DNA of 64,000 nucleotides from an uncultured Anaerolineaceae bacterium. GTDB lineage: Bacteria > Chloroflexota > Limnocylindria > Limnocylindrales > CSP1-4. Positions 3,773 through 58,684 of the stretch are shown in pieces. The stretch is taken from the NCBI GenBank assembly GCA_964518505.1, contig CAZFGT010000001.1:8-64007 (forward strand), written 5' to 3'. A program made the translations under genes and the position numbers. The notes below the pieces were generated by a model. The model was not told where the DNA came from. It did no database searches and saw only the letters and a list, made by a program, of their open reading frames with translations. The number at the start of each line of letters is the position of its first letter. The first letter of the stretch is position 1.

Positions 3773-6700
3773 ATGTCCTACCGGCGACCACCTCGCAGCG
3801 ACATCGGTGACGCGATCCAGGACTGGCTGAACCGCCAGGCGGCCGCCCAGCGCGACCGGGGCGACCGCGGCGGCGACGATGGGCCGCCCGCGGGCACACG
3901 CCGCACCGGGCCGCCGCGCCGGCTCCCGCGCCTGCCGTTCGTCATCTTCGCCATCCTGATCCTCGCCTGGCTGATCGTGGGGGCGGTGATCGACCCGGCT
4001 GCCGACTACCTGTGGTTCACCAATGTCGGCTTCGGCGACGTGTGGACCACGCAGTTCGCCTACGGGGCGGCCCTGTTCGCGCTCGGTCTCGTGGTCGGGC
4101 TGGTCTTCCTGCTCGGCAACCTCGTGCTCGCGTGGCGCTGGGGTCACGAGCCGACCGATGAGGCCTTCGCCGCCCAGGCCCACACCCGGACCTGGCGTGT
4201 CAGCGACGCCGAGGTCGACGTGCTGTCCCTCGCCGCGGCCCTGCCCCGCCGCACGATCCGCACGATCGTGGCCGGCGTCGCCATCTTCTTCGGCCTGCTG
4301 TTCGCGTTCCGCCTGCCGGCCGCATGGCAGACGGTGGCCCTCTGGTTGCACGCCGTCCCGTATGCCCCGACGGGGACCGCCACCCCGGACCCCATCTTTG
4401 GCCTGGATCTGGGCTGGTGGCTCTTCAGCCTGCCGATGCTGCACCTGGTCGCCGACGTGGCCGTGCTGCTGTTCGCCCTGAGCCTCCTGCTGACCGGGGT
4501 CGCCTACGGCCTCGTGGCCCTCCGGGGCGGCGACGTGACGGCACGCCGGCCGATCCTGCACCTGGCCATCCTGGGCGGCGCGTTGCTGCTGACGATCGCG
4601 GGCCTGCAATGGCTGGGCCGCTACGACCTGGCCTACGGCCAGAACGGGGCGGTCCCCGGCGTGACGGCGACGGATGCCGCGGTGCGCCTGCCGCTCATCG
4701 CCCTGACCGCCGTCACCACGGTCGTGCTGGCCGTCGCCATCGTCGTCCTGGCCGTGGTGCGCCGCGGCCGGGCCGCCCGCCTCGTGGCCGCCATCGGGGG
4801 CAGCTGGTACGTCCTGTTGGTGGTCGCCGGCGCCGTCGCGCCGGCCCTCTACCAGCAGCTGGTGGTGACCCCCAACCAGAACTCGGCCGAGGCGCCGTAC
4901 ATCGCCAACAACATCGCCCTCACGCGGCAGGGCTTCGGCCTCGACGGGTGGACGGTGCAGTCCTACAACGGCAAGGCGACGCTCACCGCCAGCGACGTCA
5001 GCAACGACCAGGCTACCTTCGACAACGCGCGCCTGTGGGACTACCGGCCGCTTGGCACGACGCTCGACCAGCTGCAGACGGTGCGACAGTACTACGACTT
5101 CACGTCGGTCGACATCGACCGCTACCTCATCGGCGGCGTGCCGACGGAGGTGATGCTCTCGGCCCGCGAGATGGCGCTGGACAAGAGCCAGACGAATCCG
5201 ACCTGGATCGCCCAGCACGTCCTGTACACGCACGGCTACGGGCTGGCGATGGTGCCCGTCAACGCCGTCGATGCCAACGGCTTGCCCGACCTCATCGTCA
5301 AGGACCTGCCCGTCACGTCAGCCCCCGATGCGCCGCTGGTGAGCCAGCCGCGCATCTACTTCGGCGAGCGGCCGTCCGACTGGGTGCTGGTGGATGCCCA
5401 GACCGACGAGTTCGACTATCCGTCCAGCATCGGCAACGGCAACGACGTCACGGACCAGTACGGCGGTTCGGCCGGCCTGTCCATCGGGTCGCTGCCCGCC
5501 CGCCTGCTGTGGGCGGCCAAGTTGGGCGACCTGAACCTGCTCATCAGCGACCAGGTGACGAATCAGACGCGCCTCGTCCTGCATCGCAGCCTGGCCGACC
5601 GGCTGGGCACGCTGGCGCCGTTCCTGACCCTGGATCCCGACCCGTACCTCGTGGTCGGGCCGGACGGCCGCCTGGTGTGGATCCAGGACGCGTACCTGAC
5701 CAGCGACGGGCTGCCGGCCGCGACACCCACCGATGACGCGGCCCTCAAGAGCCAGTACGACTACATCCGCAACAGCGTCAAGATCACCGTCGACGCCTAC
5801 GACGGCACGACCCACTTCTACGTGGCCGATCCGACCGATCCCCTCATCCGGGCCTGGCAGGGCGTCTTCCCCACCATGTTCCAGCCCCTCTCGGCGATGC
5901 CGGCCGGTCTGGTGGCCCACCTGCGCACGCCCGAGGCGATGTTCAACGCCCAGACCAAGACCTTCGCCCGCTATCACGTCACGGACGTGGCCAGCTTCTA
6001 CAAGAACGACAACATCTGGACAGTGCCGGCGGTGAGCGAAGGCAGCACCCAGGTCGTGCCGCCGGAGGCCTACTACGTCGAGATGCGCCTGCCCGACCAG
6101 GCGGCCCCCGAATTCGTCCTGATCCAACCCATGGTGCCCGCGTCGCGGCCCAATATGATCGCCTGGGTGGCGGCCCGCAACGACGGCACGGCTCGGGGCC
6201 AGGTCACCGTCTACCAGCTGCCGGCCAACACGACCATCCAGGGGCCCAACCAGATCGAGGCCCGTATCGACCAGGATCCGGTCATCAGCGCCCAGATCAG
6301 CCTGTGGAACCAGAGCGGCTCGCAGGTCATCCGGGGCAACCTGCTGGTGATCCCGGTGGGCACCTCCTTCCTGTACCTGGAGCCGATCTTCCTGCAGTCC
6401 ACGAGCGCGGCCTTCCCGCAGCTGACGAAAGTCGTGGTCGCCTCGTCGACCACCATCGGCTGGGGCAGCACGCTGGCCAACGCCCTCCAGGCGGTCACCA
6501 GCGGCGCGGGCACCGGGGGCACCGCCGGCACCGGCGGCGGATCGGGCGGCGGCGGCCCGCAGCCGACCGCCACGCCCGTCCCCACCGCGGCCAACGGCAA
6601 CCTGCCGACCGACATCCCCGGGCTGATCCAGTTCGCCAACGACCACTTCACGGCGGCCAAGGCAGCCCAGGCGCGCGGCGACTTCGTCACCTACGGCCAG

Positions 6701-8925: not shown

Positions 8926-9864
8926 ATGTTCGAAGAGCTAGTCGATCGCGTCCACGCGTTCCTGTTCGGCACGCCCATCGTGCGGCGCGCGGCCCCGCGA
9001 CTGGCCGGCACCTGGCACACCATCGATTCCTCCCTGCCGCTCTACGAGCTGCGACGAACGGCGTGGCAGATCCGGCACGGTCGTCGTCGCGCCCGGTTCC
9101 CGATGCGCGTCGCGTTCACGCCCGAGGCGCCGCGCTACTTCCACGGGGCCTACCAGCTGTGCGAGCGCCTCAACGTGCAGATCACCGCGGCCCCTGAGGC
9201 GGACGTGCTCATCCACTGGCGCAACGCGACCGAGTGGGGCGATCCGCCGCCCGACCTGGATGCCCGCGCCGTCAATGCGCGGGTGCGCGACATCAGCAAG
9301 CGCCACATCAACGAACTGCACGGCCGGGTCTTTGGCTATGACCTCGAGCCGGAGCCCGACGCCACCGAGTTCGTGGCCAAGTCGGACCGCAACGCGACCC
9401 ACGATGGCCGCGTGGTGGCGCGTCGATCGAGCGAGGCGGGCGTGGTGACCCAGCGCCTCATCGACAACCGGCTCGATGCGCACATGGTGACCGACTTCCG
9501 GGTGGTCCTCTTCGATGGCCGGATCGTCCTTTGCGTGGTGCGGTACCGCCCGGTGGCCAACCGCTTCCTGGGCCAGGGTTTCAGCCTGCTGGCCGTGCTG
9601 ACCCCTCCTGACGCGTGCTTCAGCGCGACCGAGCAGGCCCAGCTGGCGGCCATGTGCGACGCAGTTGGCGCCGATTGGGCCGAGCTGGACGTGCTGCGCG
9701 ACCGGGGCTCAGGCCGGCTCTACGTCGTCGACGTGAACCCCACGCCCGGCGCCCCCATCCCGAGCCTGTCGCGGGACGAGGACCGCGCCTGCTGGCGCCT
9801 GCAGGAGGCCGGCTTCGCCCAGCTCCTGCGCGCCCACGCGAGGGGGCTCGGCGCGGGCGCCTGA
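8926..9864 (+). CDS. Hypothetical ATP-grasp-like protein (paralogue 1)
   Basis: KSDRNATHDG, QRLIDNR and ELDVLRDRGSGRLYVVDVNPTPG; the C-terminus resembles the ATP-grasp 'YVxEVN' motif. Confidence 0.65.
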   Translation: MFEELVDRVHAFLFGTPIVRRAAPRLAGTWHTIDSSLPLYELRRTAWQIRHGRRRARFPMRVAFTPEAPRYFHGAYQLCERLNVQITAAPEADVLIHWRNATEWGDPPPDLDARAVNARVRDISKRHINELHGRVFGYDLEPEPDATEFVAKSDRNATHDGRVVARRSSEAGVVTQRLIDNRLDAHMVTDFRVVLFDGRIVLCVVRYRPVANRFLGQGFSLLAVLTPPDACFSATEQAQLAAMCDAVGADWAELDVLRDRGSGRLYVVDVNPTPGAPIPSLSRDEDRACWRLQEAGFAQLLRAHARGLGAGA

Positions 9865-23414: not shown

Positions 23415-24368
23415 TCAGGCGCGGGGATGGGCGCGGGCGTAGACCTGCTTGATCCGCTCCCCGGTCAGATGGGTGTACAGCTGCGTGGTGCTGATACTGG
23501 CATGTCCCAGCAGCTCCTGGACCACGCGCAGGTCCGCGCCGCCCTCCAGCAGGTGCGTGGCGAAACTGTGGCGAAGCGTATGCGGAGTGACGTGCCCGTG
23601 CAGCCCCGCCCGTTGCGCGGCGGCCTGCACGGCGCGCCAGGCGGCCATCCGCCCCAGTCGCCGGCCGCGGCTCGACACGAAGAGCGGCCCGCCCCGCGGC
23701 AGGGCCGCGGCGTCGGGCAGCCAGACCGAGCGCGCCGTCGCCTCGTAGGCCGCTAGGGCCGCCAGGGCCGGGTCGCCGACCGGCACCAGTCGCTCGCGAT
23801 CGCCCTTGCCGATGACCCGCACGTAGCCACCCTCCGCGGAGAGGTCCTGCCGGTCCAGGGCCGTCGCCTCGCCGATGCGCAGGCCGGAGGCATAGAGCAG
23901 CTCCAGCAGGGCGTGATCGCGCATCGCGGCTGGGTCGTCGCCCACGCTCGCATCCAGGAGCTGGATGACCTCGTCGGCGGCCAGGGGGTCCGGCAGGCGG
24001 CGGCCCGGGCGAGGCAGGTCCAGGCGACCGGCCACGTCCACGTCGATGAGGCCCTCGGCGAAGGCGAAACGGTAGAAGGCGCGAATCGCCGCCGCGCGTC
24101 GCCGCCGGGTGGCGGGACGGAGGGGCACCGGAGGGTCGCCGAGACCGGACAGGTACGTGCGCGCCGGCTCGACCGACCTGCCCCATGCTCCCACGTCGGG
24201 CGAGGTGGCCCCGAACGCGCGGAGGTCGGAGGCATACGCGGAGCGCGTGCGCGGGGAGAGGCCGCGCTCGACGCGGAGGTAGACGAGATACGCCGCCACG
24301 GCCGCCTGGTAGGCAGGTGGCCCGACCGTCCCCAGGGGTCCGACCCCCACCGGCCCCGCCTGGCTCAC
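23415..24368 (-). CDS. xerD: Chromosomal tyrosine recombinase XerD
   Basis: YASGLR, GKGDRER, HTLRHSFATH, LGHASISTTQLYT; lies in the tlyA-nadK housekeeping operon. Confidence 0.88.
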   Translation of the reverse strand: MSQAGPVGVGPLGTVGPPAYQAAVAAYLVYLRVERGLSPRTRSAYASDLRAFGATSPDVGAWGRSVEPARTYLSGLGDPPVPLRPATRRRRAAAIRAFYRFAFAEGLIDVDVAGRLDLPRPGRRLPDPLAADEVIQLLDASVGDDPAAMRDHALLELLYASGLRIGEATALDRQDLSAEGGYVRVIGKGDRERLVPVGDPALAALAAYEATARSVWLPDAAALPRGGPLFVSSRGRRLGRMAAWRAVQAAAQRAGLHGHVTPHTLRHSFATHLLEGGADLRVVQELLGHASISTTQLYTHLTGERIKQVYARAHPRA

Positions 24369-25213
24369 GGCGGAAGCAGCTCCACCTTGCGGCGCAGCAG
24401 GTCCCAGAACGAGGGCGTGCCGGGGGGCTGCATGAAGCGGATGGGCCGCTCGCGGGCATGCACCTGGACGCTATCACCGACCGCCAGGGCCAGGTCGGTC
24501 TGGCCGTCGATGCTGACCATCACGTCGTAGGCGGCCTCCACCCGCACGGTCACGGTGTGGCGGGGGCTGACGACGATGGAATGGATGCCCGCCAGGTAGG
24601 CGGCGATCGGCGTCACGACCAGGTTCCGGCTGCCGGGATCCAGGATCGGCCCGCCGGCGCTGAAGGAGTAGCCGGTCGAGCCGGTCGGGGTGGCGACCAC
24701 CAGTCCGTCGGCCCGATAGGTCGCCAGGTGCGTCTCGTCGATGGCCACATCAAGGCGGATGAGGCGGGGGGACGATCCGCGCACGATGGCGGCTTCGTTG
24801 AGGGCGACGAAGTGCGCCGCGGTCGTGGTGGTCGCCCCTCCCGGCGCGGGCACGACCCTGACCTCCAGGGCCATCCGCGACTCGGCCTCGAAGGCGCCGT
24901 CACGGGCCTGGCCGAGCACCGCCTCCAGCTGGTCCGCCTCCGCCCGGGCGAGGAAGCCGACCTTGCCGGTGTTGACCCCCAGGAGCGGCACGTCCGTGTT
25001 GGCCAGGGCGCTCACGGCCCGCAGGATCGTCCCGTCGCCGCCCAGGATGAGCAGCAGCTCGGTGCCCGGGAGATTGGTGCGCACCAGGGCCGTATCGGCC
25101 CCAGGCGAGGTCCAGACGGCGAGGTCGTGCCGCGTGCACCACGCGACGGCCCGCTCCAGGAGCGCCACGGCGAGCGGATTCGTGGCGTTGAAGACGATGC
25201 CCAGGCGGTTCAT
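24365..25213 (-). CDS. nadK: NAD(+) kinase
   Basis: GGDGT, NE, and DGLVVATPTGSTGYSFSAGGP motifs. Confidence 0.95.
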   Translation of the reverse strand: MNRLGIVFNATNPLAVALLERAVAWCTRHDLAVWTSPGADTALVRTNLPGTELLLILGGDGTILRAVSALANTDVPLLGVNTGKVGFLARAEADQLEAVLGQARDGAFEAESRMALEVRVVPAPGGATTTTAAHFVALNEAAIVRGSSPRLIRLDVAIDETHLATYRADGLVVATPTGSTGYSFSAGGPILDPGSRNLVVTPIAAYLAGIHSIVVSPRHTVTVRVEAAYDVMVSIDGQTDLALAVGDSVQVHARERPIRFMQPPGTPSFWDLLRRKVELLPP

Positions 25214-53336: not shown

Positions 53337-54284
53337 ATGGCACGGTATGGGGTGGCGCGGCTGCTGGCAGCCCTCCTCACGAGCGCCCTGCTCGTTGCCT
53401 GCGGATCGACATCAGTGACCCCGACGCCAACTCCCTCGTCGGTGGCGTCCACCGTCCCGACGAGCACCCCGACGGCCTTGCCCACCCCGACCCCGACGCC
53501 GTCACCGACACCCACCCCCACACCCGTCGCCACACCGCCGCCGCTCGTCCTGCACCACTGTCCCGGTCGCGCGGCTACCGCCCTCGGCGGCGCGGTGAAC
53601 TTCGAGTCGACCAACTGGAGTGGCTACGTCGCAGGCAACGGCCGGAGCCGCCAGGTCACGTGCGTCGAGGGCGCCTGGATCGAGCCGATCGTGACCTGCC
53701 CCAAGTCGGGCACGAGCGATGTCGCCATCTGGGTCGGCCTCGACGGCTCGTCCAGCGAGCACCTGGGTAACGCGGCCATCGGGCCCGAGCAGGTCGGGAC
53801 CCAGGTCGACTGCCGCGATGGGGCGCTCTCACACGGCGCCTGGTGGGAGACCGTCCCCAGCCTGGATCATTCGATCGACTTCGGCGACGTCATCCGGCCC
53901 GCCAGCGGAGACCACATGTGGGCCCAGGTCATCTATGGCCCGCACGGTTTCACGATGACCCTGACCGACCTCACCAGCCAGGAGACGGACTCGATCACGC
54001 AGCAGGTCAAGGGCGCGCCGCGTCTGACCGCCGAGTGGATCGTGGAGGCCCCCAGCGAGGCCTGCGGCAAGGCCACCTGCACGGTGCTGGCGCTGGCCAA
54101 GTTCGCCAAGATCGTCTTCACCGGCGGCCTGGCGGTGATCGCCGGCCGACTCGGGTCGATCGGCGACCGCCACTGGTCACGCGACGAGATCACGGACGTC
54201 ACCACCAGCGGGACACACCGCACGACCGTCTCGGGCCTCGCCTCCAAGGGCCAGTCGTTCACCGTGACCTGGCACCACGTCTAG
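53337..54284 (+). CDS. Lipoprotein with a glutamic peptidase G1 (eqolisin/Peptidase_A4) domain
   Basis: Lipobox LLVAC, PT linker, STNWSGY, WVGLDG, EQVGT (Gln) and AEWIVE (Glu). Confidence 0.85.
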   Translation: MARYGVARLLAALLTSALLVACGSTSVTPTPTPSSVASTVPTSTPTALPTPTPTPSPTPTPTPVATPPPLVLHHCPGRAATALGGAVNFESTNWSGYVAGNGRSRQVTCVEGAWIEPIVTCPKSGTSDVAIWVGLDGSSSEHLGNAAIGPEQVGTQVDCRDGALSHGAWWETVPSLDHSIDFGDVIRPASGDHMWAQVIYGPHGFTMTLTDLTSQETDSITQQVKGAPRLTAEWIVEAPSEACGKATCTVLALAKFAKIVFTGGLAVIAGRLGSIGDRHWSRDEITDVTTSGTHRTTVSGLASKGQSFTVTWHHV

Positions 54285-54368
54285 CGTCGCGCTAGCAGCC
54301 GGCCGTCGGGTTCCGCGGCCCCTGAGGTCGGCGGCGCTCCCATCGGCCCCCACCTATCTGGTCGTACA

Positions 54369-54514
54369 TGACTGGGGGGCACGTTAGAGCCGAAATCCGG
54401 CCCCGAAAGCGCCGCCCGAGTGGCCGCCGAGGTCTCGATCGAGCGTGGATACGGCCTGACCTGCCAACGCCCGCTCCGGAATGCTGCTCTAACGTGCCCC
54501 GGTATCAGATCTGA
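54369..54514. repeat. Inverted-repeat element family A, copy 1 (REPIN/MITE-like, 146 bp)
   Basis: Perfect 15-bp inverted repeat GGGGCACGTTAGAGC (54376-54390) / GCTCTAACGTGCCCC (54486-54500), ending in palindrome TCAGATCTGA. Second copy at 55525-55670. Confidence 0.8.
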
Positions 54515-54542
54515 CCGCGTGGCTGCGGCGTGCGGCCGCCGA

Positions 54543-55469
54543 TCAGGCCGGCGGACGGCGATAGCGGCGCAGGACTGACCGGCGGCGAAACCCGACCGAC
54601 GTGTAGAGCGCCTCGGCAGCGTCGTTCGCCGTATCGGACAGGACCTGGACGAGGCGCGCCCCGAGCGCCGCGTAGCGATGGAGCGCATGGTCGAGCAGGG
54701 CGCCCCCGAGGCCCAGCCGCTGATGGTCGGGATGCGTTCCGACCGGCTCGAACTCACCGACCTTGGCGACCGGATCCCACCAGGCCATGGTGAAGGCGGC
54801 GAATGACCCGTCGGAAGCCTCGACGACGAGGTCGTCCTCGAAGCGGTAGTTGGGCAGCCCGACGAGCCGTTCGTACTTGTCGACGCTCATCCGCGAGGGC
54901 GCGAAGGCGGCCCGGTGGACCTCGACTCGGGCCGGGATCTCGGCCAGGCCAGCGACCGGGCGGATCCGATAGCCCGGCGGCAGCGGGCGTCGTGGCCGGT
55001 CCGCGATGTCGGCGACCGTCCGCTGGAACTGGGAGAACGCCGGGTGGCCGCTGCCCGGTGTGGGAGCAAGGATGAAGCCGGACGTCTCAAGGCGACCGAT
55101 CAAACCCACGTCGTCGGCCCACATCACCAGGGCCCCATCCGCACCTGCTGCGGCACGATGCGTAGCCCCAGCGATGGCCCAGTCCAGGAGGGCGGCCTGG
55201 ACCGCCGCATCGACCTGCGGGTCGCCGCTCCAGACCTGGGCCGCGAGTTCGACCTCATCGACCCAGCTCCAGCCGACGACGCGCTTTCCGGCCGACCACA
55301 GCCGGAGGTGCTGCGACAGGTCGGCCGGCCAGGCCTGGGCGTACCACCACGAGAGATCGCCCGGCGTCACATCCACGAACGGCGCGCGCGCGAGCCATGC
55401 CTGGCTGAGGACGTCGGCGGCGGCCTGCAGATCGGCGATGCCGACGGCCGGCCGCGAGGTGACATGCAC
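54543..55469 (-). CDS. GNAT family N-acetyltransferase
   Basis: GEFEPVGTHPDHQRLGLG and AEALYTSVGF motifs; GTG start 6 nt after TACCCT. Confidence 0.88.
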   Translation of the reverse strand: MHVTSRPAVGIADLQAAADVLSQAWLARAPFVDVTPGDLSWWYAQAWPADLSQHLRLWSAGKRVVGWSWVDEVELAAQVWSGDPQVDAAVQAALLDWAIAGATHRAAAGADGALVMWADDVGLIGRLETSGFILAPTPGSGHPAFSQFQRTVADIADRPRRPLPPGYRIRPVAGLAEIPARVEVHRAAFAPSRMSVDKYERLVGLPNYRFEDDLVVEASDGSFAAFTMAWWDPVAKVGEFEPVGTHPDHQRLGLGGALLDHALHRYAALGARLVQVLSDTANDAAEALYTSVGFRRRSVLRRYRRPPA

Positions 55470-55524
55470 CGGCCAAGGGTACGGCGCGGGCCCGCAAGGT
55501 TGGAGGGCAGAACCTGTCCAAACG

Positions 55525-55670
55525 TGACTGCGGGGCACGTTAGAGTCGCTTTCGACCCGCCCGCGGGGGCTTCAAACGGCCTCGGCCGCACAGGCTCAGC
55601 GTGATCCGGGCGATCGGCGGTGTCCTGCGGCTCTGACAACCGCCCTAACGTGCCCCCGAGTCAGATCTGA
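55525..55670. repeat. Inverted-repeat element family A, copy 2 (146 bp)
   Basis: Left arm matches copy 1 at 22/24 nt and right arm at 25/29 nt; the interior is not similar by eye. Confidence 0.8.
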
Positions 55671-55690
55671 GCATCTTGCCCCGGCACGCC

Positions 55691-56269
55691 TTACCGGAGC
55701 GCCTCGTAGTGGAGGAGGATCTCCTTGTTCTTGCCCGGCTTCGTCTCGATGAGACTCAGCGTCGTCTGACCGTCCATCGGTCCCCAGTACCGAGGACCCT
55801 TCCCGTAGACGACAGGCATGACGAAGAACCAATAGTCGTCGGCGAGGTTGCGGCGGAGGCACTCCCGGACCACGGCGGGGCCCCCCTCGAGGATGATGTT
55901 CCCGCCCTCCTCACGCTTCACCTGCTCGAGGATCTCAGCGAGATCACCGCTCAGGATCCGCGAGTTCTCCCAGTCGGTGGACGCGAGGCGGTGCGAGAGG
56001 CAGACCTTCTCGACCCGGTCCAGGTAGCGTCGATAGTCGATGAGCCATGCCGGCTCGCTCGGATCGAGCGCCTTCTCGCTCCACGTCTGCTGGTGACCGA
56101 GAAAGGATCGTCGGCCCATGACGACCGTCGTAACGTCGTCGAACCGGTCGTACCACATGTTTCGAAAGAGCGGGTTGGGCTCGGTCGACGGCTGACCCGA
56201 CGTCGGATACTCCGGGAAGACGCCGCGGCCGTCCAGGGTCATGTACACGTTCGCCGTGATCTTCCGCAT
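55691..56269 (-). CDS. Dihydrofolate reductase / RibD C-terminal family protein
   Basis: YMTLDG, VMGRRSF, EGGPAVV and VMPVVYGKG motifs. Confidence 0.88.
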   Translation of the reverse strand: MRKITANVYMTLDGRGVFPEYPTSGQPSTEPNPLFRNMWYDRFDDVTTVVMGRRSFLGHQQTWSEKALDPSEPAWLIDYRRYLDRVEKVCLSHRLASTDWENSRILSGDLAEILEQVKREEGGNIILEGGPAVVRECLRRNLADDYWFFVMPVVYGKGPRYWGPMDGQTTLSLIETKPGKNKEILLHYEALR

Positions 56270-56470: not shown

Positions 56471-56866
56471 TCAGTCGCGTTGCGGCAGCGCCCCTGCATC
56501 GAGAAGGGCGGCGTGGGCGGCAAGGAAGGCCTGCCGGCCGGCCGGGCTGCCGCAGTAGGCCGTGACATGGACCATGACCTCGCGGATCTCGTCGACCGTG
56601 GCGCCGCAGTTGAGGGCGCCGCGGGTGTAGATGGAGACCTCTTCAGACCGCCCGAGCGCGGCCAGGATGCCGAGGCTCAGGAGGCACTTGGTCTTCCGGT
56701 CGATCGCCGTTCCGGTCCAGGCCCGTCCCCAGGCCTGCTCGGTGACCAGATCCTGGAAGGTCATCATGAAGTCGTCTGCGGCCGCCAGGTTGCGATCGAC
56801 GTAGGCATCGCCGAGGACAGCCCGACGCGCCGCCAGCCCATGCCGATAGGTATCCGTGCGGTCCAT
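56471..56866 (-). CDS. Carboxymuconolactone decarboxylase family protein
   Basis: GLAARRAVLGDAYV, AWGRAW and HVTAYCGSP motifs. Confidence 0.88.
   Translation of the reverse strand: MDRTDTYRHGLAARRAVLGDAYVDRNLAAADDFMMTFQDLVTEQAWGRAWTGTAIDRKTKCLLSLGILAALGRSEEVSIYTRGALNCGATVDEIREVMVHVTAYCGSPAGRQAFLAAHAALLDAGALPQRD

Positions 56867-56977: not shown

Positions 56978-58684
<1,707 letters not shown>

Follow-up and report, generated by a model that had tools for sequence, protein, structure and literature searches.

The DNA analyzed here, a window of 64 kb (positions 8 to 64,007 of contig CAZFGT010000001.1) from an uncultured Anaerolineaceae bacterium of the Limnocylindrales, contains two long imperfect palindromes, elements A and B (named W_A and W_B as copies), which have the same orientation and bracket a gene for a GNAT acetyltransferase. 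Element A (54359..54517, plus strand) consists of a left arm (54359-54390), an interior of 95 nt (54391-54485), and a right arm (54486-54517), and element B (55515..55673, plus strand) is built in the same way, with the left arm at 55515-55546, an interior of 95 nt at 55547-55641, and the right arm at 55642-55673. The GNAT gene between them (54543..55469, minus strand) encodes 308 amino acids when started at a GTG codon, and the product is matched over its full length, with 99% identity, by the 308-amino-acid homologue P0024. A is located where a peptidase A4 gene, pepA4 (53337..54284, plus strand), and the GNAT gene converge with their 3′ ends, and B between the stop codon of a RibD_C-domain gene (55691..56269, minus strand) and the GNAT start codon. 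Both elements belong to one low-copy superfamily of long imperfect-palindrome repeats in Limnocylindrales, Chloroflexota of soil, that was previously undescribed.

An earlier note on this DNA had described two 146-bp copies at 54369-54514 and 55525-55670. Both are present as noted there, the former falling within element A, and the inverted repeat reaches further outward, with arms of at least 32 nt and weaker palindromy beyond. The left arms are identical at 22 of 24 positions (TGACTGGGGGGCACGTTAGAGCCG in A and TGACTGCGGGGCACGTTAGAGTCG in B), and the right arms are likewise similar, both containing CTAACGTGCCCC...TCAGATCTGA. Read inward, an arm has the pattern TGGYCA - 4 nt - TGACT - 2 nt - GGGGCACGTTAGAGC, or, written with T at the ambiguous position, TGGTCA-N4-TGACT-NN-GGGGCACGTTAGAGC. 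The 14-mer GGGGCACGTTAGAG occurs four times in the 64 kb when up to two mismatches are allowed, in each case within an arm of A or B, compared to a mean of 0.57 occurrences in shuffled sequences, none of which reached four in 100 shuffles. A repeat search identified the arms of A as the inverted pair I1 and two direct-repeat families, D1 and D2, both spaced 1156 bp from start to start, which is exactly the offset between A and B.

The earlier note saw no similarity between the interiors of A and B. They are in fact weakly but truly related, with 36 of 95 positions identical in an ungapped comparison versus 27.8 ± 4.3 after shuffling (p = 0.035). Within the interior of A there is a central box, GAGCGTGGAT (54441..54450, plus strand), with about 50 nt between the left inner arm and its start and 35 nt between its end and the right inner arm, and the box of B, TCAGCGTGAT (55596..55605, plus strand), is in register with it. 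In the same orientation, the central box of A (GAGCGTGG, 54441-54450) is also similar to the right inner arm (54486-54498; CTAGCGTGCC in the related loci L001 and L004), and judged from this resemblance the box might be a third half-site for a factor that binds the arms.

The comparison was extended to loci of other genomes and metagenomes. L001 and L002 are the only two matches of an exact left-arm scan of the GTDB representative genomes, both of them short elements with no autonomous element among them; L001 is from a metagenome-assembled genome (MAG) of a Candidatus Limnocylindrales and carries an orthologue of A, and L002 is from an uncultured Chloroflexia MAG. An arm-pair scan of JGI metagenomes matched L003, L004, and L005, the last of which is the window locus itself with 99.9% identity. 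The loci L006 to L022 were fetched via homologues of the peptidase, the GNAT protein, and an MFS transporter. The closest named contig to the window is from a Candidatus Limnocylindrales MAG, whose DNA is 88% identical. Copies are present at other loci in other genomes, and the suggestion of a nonautonomous inverted-repeat family in a nonproteobacterial genome is supported. A profile search yielded 19 elements in 11 contigs, on which the family-wide counts given below are based.

Inverted arms of ~32 to 45 nt are present in all 19 copies. The interior is 116 nt long in nine copies (L002_A, L016_M2, L016_DA, L016_M1, L018_UM, L018_DA, L019_UA, L019_DA, and L020_U), 115 nt in L002_M, 106 nt in L016_C, 105 nt in L018_DM, and 95 to 97 nt in seven copies (W_A, W_B, L001, L006, L022, L003, and L021), so that the length constraint on the spacer is stronger than could be told from the two copies of the earlier note. 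The steps between these lengths correspond to about one helical turn (~10.5 bp), and the shortening is confined to the stretch between the box and the right arm, which measures 56, 46, or 35 nt. L018_DM, with its 105 nt, is the orthologue of L016_M1, with 116 nt. In sequence the interiors have no relationship to one another (z-scores of most alignments, 0 to 3), except that orthologues do, as does L019_UA to L019_DA. The box comprises 10 to 12 bp, (T)GAGCGTGGAT, with the family-wide form (C/T)TGAGCGTGGAT and the variant GGTTCGTGCKTGGCAAC. It starts at position 49-50 from the left inner arm end in all of the 19 aligned copies and is strongly degenerate in L002_M, L016_C, and L019_DA.

Two arm types, A and M, with common outer ends can be distinguished. 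The two ends of a unit are consistently unlike, one being a "G-end" (TGGTCA-GATS-TGACT-CC-GGGG...) and the other a "T-end" (TGGTCA-TACR-TGACT-GG-GGGG...). The T-end is located 5′ of the box in the lineages of the pepA4-groEL hotspot described below, the G-end in all other copies. Type M, with inner arms such as GGGGTGGTGTTAGAGC or CGGGTGGTACTCGAGC, occurs beside A-type copies in L002, L004/L016, and L018, and agrees with type A in its outer ends (..CCTGGTCAGAT..) and in the length and box of its interior. Copies of this type were located at 1713-1905 and 4526-4715 in L004, at ~6454-6642 in L002, and at 9578-9778 and 12488-12671 in L018. An M copy is usually the doublet partner of an A-type copy 35 to 57 nt away; the window has none.

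In the population represented by the window, at most about six superfamily copies were seen: A, B, C, DA, M1, and M2. More than the two copies initially noted therefore exist, as a third, a fourth, and two M-type relatives are located at a tetR-MFS locus, whose sequencing depth tracks that of the window locus over seven runs. In L016 the order at this locus is C, M2, the MFS gene, tetR, the A-type copy L016_DA, and M1, so that doublets bracket a two-gene unit, which is conserved in all four relatives. When the contigs of run X1 were compared with the arms at a likeness of at least 80%, only one further copy was found; more diverged copies would be missed at this threshold. An apparent joint from 54390 to 55645 in metagenome contigs was considered as an excision product and rejected, as it is the third copy elsewhere, with 109 nt between the arms and identical to L016_C.

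Copies are retained at orthologous intergenic sites (after the peptidase gene, before the MFS gene, and after tetR) across genomes whose flanking proteins are 84 to 90% identical. At such sites the arms are ~90% identical and the interiors drift. One orthologous site is occupied by an M type in L016 (M2) and L018 (UM) and by an A type in L019 (UA), with the same outer ends and box. The presence of copies also varies: copy C is present in L016 and absent in L018, the M copies are absent in L019, and L020 lacks both elements downstream of tetR. Some derived variants are common to the copies of one genome. In both W_A and W_B, CAGATC takes the place of the CACATC of their orthologues, and L019_UA and L019_DA share CTCTACCGTGCCCCCC, which suggests that copies within a genome undergo gene conversion. 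The retention across species gives no sign of recent spread, and in its behavior the family resembles an old, retained repeat of the REPIN/BIME type, unlike an actively spreading miniature inverted-repeat transposable element (MITE).

The interval that contains A and B is a hotspot of gene content, with pepA4 as the conserved left anchor and groEL (56978..58609, minus strand) as the conserved right anchor. In the window the order is pepA4, A, GNAT, B, RibD_C, a carboxymuconolactone decarboxylase (CMD) family gene (56471..56866, minus strand), and groEL. The RibD_C gene is variable cargo, present in L006 and absent in L003, L007, and L022, and so is the CMD gene, which is absent in all four of these loci. 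Only an 82-bp terminator separates pepA4 from groEL in L007, only an A-type element in L022, and only a B-type element, followed directly by groEL, in L003. L021 likewise has a B-type element next to pepA4, with the contig ending before groEL, and in L006 pepA4 is followed by an A-type element, RibD_C, and groEL. In L001, the place of GNAT next to element A is taken by a luciferase-like oxidoreductase gene, of which the 3′ end is present before the contig ends. Relatives without the GNAT gene keep a single element, and presence and absence thus vary between relatives. The window region from 43 to 64 kb has UvrD, peptidase A4, groEL/groES, TatD, tRNA synthetase, and peptidase S8 genes in common with L006 and L007.

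An exchange between the left arms of A and B would produce the arrangement pepA4 followed by a B-type element, and an exchange between their right arms would produce pepA4 followed by an A-type element and RibD_C; in either case a unit of one element and GNAT would be removed or, in reverse, added. The comparison shows that both expected arrangements exist among the relatives. The description in the earlier note and its proposal that A and B form a composite cassette that moves or deletes the GNAT gene largely hold up. GNAT with the arms is not a travelling cassette: GNAT homologues with 66 to 74% identity are located elsewhere without any elements, and the idea that GNAT travels with the arms was therefore rejected. 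Two further candidates were rejected. L003 could not be established as a chimera of the left part of A and the right part of B, because it offers too few diagnostic positions, and is treated simply as B type. The terminator loop of the L007 type is not a precise empty site, since a complete groEL terminator of its own is still present in each of L003 and L006.

Several observations at the hotspot are reported for their own sake. The 36-nt right flank of A (54515..54550) contains the 14-mer CCGCCGATCAGGCC (54536-54549) and the GNAT stop codon and is kept in L001 despite the absence of GNAT there. The same 14-mer is thus found to the right of A in the window and in L001, and it is located to the left of the element in L006 (10964-10977); in L001 a close variant is also present on the left, which gives the element a direct repeat of 19 nt on its two sides that differs at two positions. 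A contig of low depth (3.2- to 3.7-fold) in runs X4 and X8 matches the window from 54531 to 54560 and then continues towards A with unlike sequence (...GCCTGGGCGATC), indicating a co-occurring variant with a different junction just right of A. The luciferase-like (F420-type) oxidoreductase gene of L001 (1-230) ends where the GNAT gene of the window ends, and in L012, L013, and L015 a luciferase-like oxidoreductase gene is located directly upstream of the GNAT homologue; this gene order hints at the pair of oxidoreductase and GNAT genes as the older arrangement. Directly upstream of the L003 element, at 3930-4040, there are 3 to 4 tandem units of ~40/20 nt (CCGATCCTGGTCATTCGCCGG...) similar to the outer left arm, and L021 has a shorter version of them. 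L003 contains GAGCGTGGATC twice (4131-4141 and 4227-4237), as its box and again 20 to 30 nt past the right arm, where it adjoins a remnant resembling the 3′ end of RibD_C (CCGGAGCG).

Palindromic repeats of several kinds are known from other bacteria. The likeness of the superfamily to them is one of architecture, in which the REPINs and BIME-1 (RIP, RIB) elements of Enterobacteria and Pseudomonas come closest. The likeness consists of two inverted arms around a spacer, an intergenic location often just past stop codons, and an occurrence as single copies, doublets, and clusters. In BIME-1/RIP, a central box that binds the protein IHF is located between two inverted REPs, to which the box at a fixed 49-50 nt between the inverted arms, a candidate binding box, would correspond. 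Inspection by eye revealed no sigma-54 site in the elements and no IHF consensus in the box. The elements have the inverted pair that defines a REPIN, but their spacer of 95 to 116 nt is far longer than usual and quantized, and their arms measure 32 to 45 bp instead of 20 to 40 bp. Each REP carries a conserved GTAG (or CGTC) tag at one end (PMC3733652), whereas the arm ends here read ..CCTGGTCAG.. and ..CTGACCAGG.., and GTAG was seen only in the flank of L001 (CCATGTAGC) when the ends were read by eye, without a pattern search. A Y1-HUH gene was found neither in the window nor among the Pfam matches in the gene tables of L006 to L022 (~200 kb), in which many small or truncated calls have no Pfam entry. 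With no conserved tag seen, no such gene found in these sequences, only about six copies seen where REPINs reach tens to hundreds, and retention at orthologous sites across species, the earlier interpretation as REPINs mobilized by a RAYT could not be upheld.

Another group comprises the terminal-inverted-repeat families linked to TIRYTs (RAYT-like Y1), the TIRtrons, which are moderately abundant, have long inverted repeats, form dimers or clusters in some cases, and occur in nonenterobacterial phyla, and some of these families have the G-rich motif GGGGWSAS (Di Nocera et al. 2013, PMC3733652). The elements are similar to them in these respects, and their arms contain GGGGCAC, an inexact fit to the motif. 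With MITEs, including the Tn3-derived TIMEs, they have in common that they are short, noncoding, and dispersed, possess long terminal inverted repeats, and are present or absent between relatives. They differ from MITEs in that no target-site duplication is seen, no autonomous partner is known, and each copy has an unrelated interior, a part that the copies of a MITE usually have in common. A blastn search with element A against 72,556 plasmids gave only short GC-rich chance matches and no end of an insertion sequence, and the arm-pair pattern was not found in viral contigs. By eye, the likeness to the Tn3-type 38-bp ends (GGGG...ACGTTAAG) and to the ssoA CS-6 motif (TAGCGT) is only loose.

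Regarding their function, we hold with middling confidence that the elements form a low-copy inverted-repeat superfamily working as a protein-bound DNA element made up of arms, a phased spacer, and a box. A length that is fixed in steps of ~10.5 bp in combination with a free sequence is what would be expected for two sites on the same face of the helix, and the element is therefore read as protein-bound DNA. Most likely, it would act as double-stranded DNA, and its arms would bind a sequence-specific protein whose gene is located elsewhere and which would be a recombinase or transposase or else a nucleoid protein. The box would serve as a third site or as the site of a bending factor, and arms and box together would allow the two arms to come side by side, which would explain why only in-phase spacer lengths survive.

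Several results weigh against this interpretation. The reading in helical turns is based on three independent shortening events (-10, -11, and ~-20), and no protein partner for the arms or the box was identified. At the TG..CA ends of five independent loci inspected by eye (W_A/L001, W_B, L002_A, the A-type copy of L004, and L004 M1), no direct repeat of 2 to 10 bp was present as a target-site duplication; instead, the flanks carry the palindrome on, fading outward. A precise empty site was not found either, as the "empty" site downstream of tetR in L020 misses more than the elements. In view of these two negative results, any mobility is putative. At the hotspot, the different states may reflect either deletions or insertions and do not reveal the order of change, and L003, when read for it, contains no clear chimeric sequence. 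The joint expected from a 1156-bp deletion was absent from the contigs of eight rhizosphere metagenome runs, the data set used for all joint searches, in which negative results are weak since contigs drop rare variants.

Long stems beside stop codons would also fit a role as RNA, in which the transcribed palindrome folds into a long hairpin that serves as a terminator, as a protector of 3′ ends, or as a processing site of the RNase III type. Such roles have been suggested for REP and ERIC sequences. Stop codons (of pepA4, GNAT, RibD_C, and tetR) directly adjoin many copies, B resembles an intercistronic element in its location between two genes of the same strand, RibD_C and GNAT, the strand of the box is fixed, and the predicted RNA stems comprise 30 to 45 bp, with folding z-scores of -2.4 and -2.6. 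This good folding of single copies is due to the arms alone. In a gap-free alignment of eight 116-nt copies, RNAalifold gave -15.9 kcal/mol compared to -17.7 ± 1.7 kcal/mol for column shuffles, so that no conserved interior structure is evident, and in a five-copy alignment the covariation term was positive (+3.5), providing no support from covariation. The 293 arm mismatches, read on the box strand, comprise 43 G·T, 53 A·C, and 197 other mismatches; this lack of a wobble bias, with no excess of G·U on one strand, argues against a stem selected as RNA. In addition, the conserved mismatch blocks (4 × 4 and 2 × 2) are kept as sequence and not as pairs, a spacer quantized in 10-nt steps has no obvious rationale in RNA, and the box strand is antisense to the neighboring genes at B and in L002. 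Any preference of the box for the sense strand of its neighboring genes is not significant when L002 and B are counted. Rfam 15 gave no match at the elements, either in the window at the gathering threshold or in four loci at E ≤ 1. A T-tract terminator is neither in nor beside A or B, the single match of the scan (55711-55724) being located inside the RibD_C gene. Taken together, we consider an RNA function unlikely. Two further explanations retain a DNA site and assign it to recombination. According to one of them, the elements are cassette sites similar to attC or dif, at which small units (GNAT, RibD_C, or tetR-MFS) are inserted and excised by a dedicated recombinase with duplication of the site. 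Like attC sites and CALIN arrays, the elements are imperfect palindromes whose outer boxes and unpaired positions are conserved and whose center varies, and they are co-oriented and bracket single genes. Here, co-oriented elements enclose GNAT in the window and tetR-MFS in L016. The asymmetric ends and conserved internal loops are also attC-like, gene-free tandem doublets exist, gene content varies between conserved anchors, and the outermost motifs are common to different arm types. Yet the canonical attC order, with R'' (RYYYAAC) on the 5′ side and R' (GTTRRRY) on the 3′ side, is not found, as GTTAGAG precedes CTCTAAC on either strand and the motifs are inner instead of outermost; units of 159 to 200 bp are outside the attC range of 57 to 141 bp, and only two sites are present. 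Pfam analysis of the open reading frames of the window, supplemented for 43 to 64 kb by comparison with the gene tables of L006 and L007, revealed neither a transposase, in agreement with the earlier note, nor an HUH protein, nor the integron integrase IntI. The sole recombinase gene of the window (23415..24470, minus strand) is located among housekeeping genes, beside those for NAD kinase and ScpA, and encodes a tyrosine recombinase of the Xer type (303 bits, versus 123 bits with the integron-integrase model, for which the cut-off is 265); no link between it and the elements was found. Moreover, the tetR-MFS unit is not variable, being kept in all four relatives, the GNAT homologues elsewhere are free of elements, and no circular or excision joints were seen in the metagenome contigs. 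Cassette sites of this kind are thus quite improbable.

The related proposition that arms and box form the synaptic site of a putative site-specific recombinase of Limnocylindrales, with the elements bounding a non-integron gene-cassette system, likewise appears distinctly doubtful to us. If it were true, resident elements would be the points of insertion and excision for units such as "element + GNAT", and the geometry of the recombination complex would account for the strict phasing of the spacer. The other explanation takes the arms as sites of an invertase, with the interior and its box flipping as a switch. Invertase synapses typically involve short loops under a phase constraint, and the inverted arms do enclose a short segment with an oriented box. 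This box faces the T-end in the hotspot lineages and the G-end elsewhere, and the interior has therefore flipped with respect to the arm ends on at least one occasion. On the other hand, all orthologues at three sites, with at least three genomes each, have the same orientation, a sigma-70 scan of the elements found no promoter-like site, no invertase gene is near the elements in the window, and strand-switch joints were absent from the metagenome contigs. We regard such an inversion switch as highly improbable.

The interpretation as a protein-bound DNA element is of interest because of its unusually clean signature: the arms and a single box are conserved, and the spacers are unrelated in sequence yet measure 116 bp or are shorter by whole helical turns. 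This signature makes the question of RNA hairpin or DNA site testable and predicts an arm-binding protein that needs the arms in phase. To our knowledge, palindromic intergenic repeats are well studied in Proteobacteria and hardly in Chloroflexota, and the Limnocylindria are without a cultured model. The pepA4-groEL hotspot also illustrates the way in which such repeats shape gene content: among close relatives, the number of accessory genes in this single slot between two core genes ranges from zero to three, and repeats are located at three of the four gene boundaries within it.

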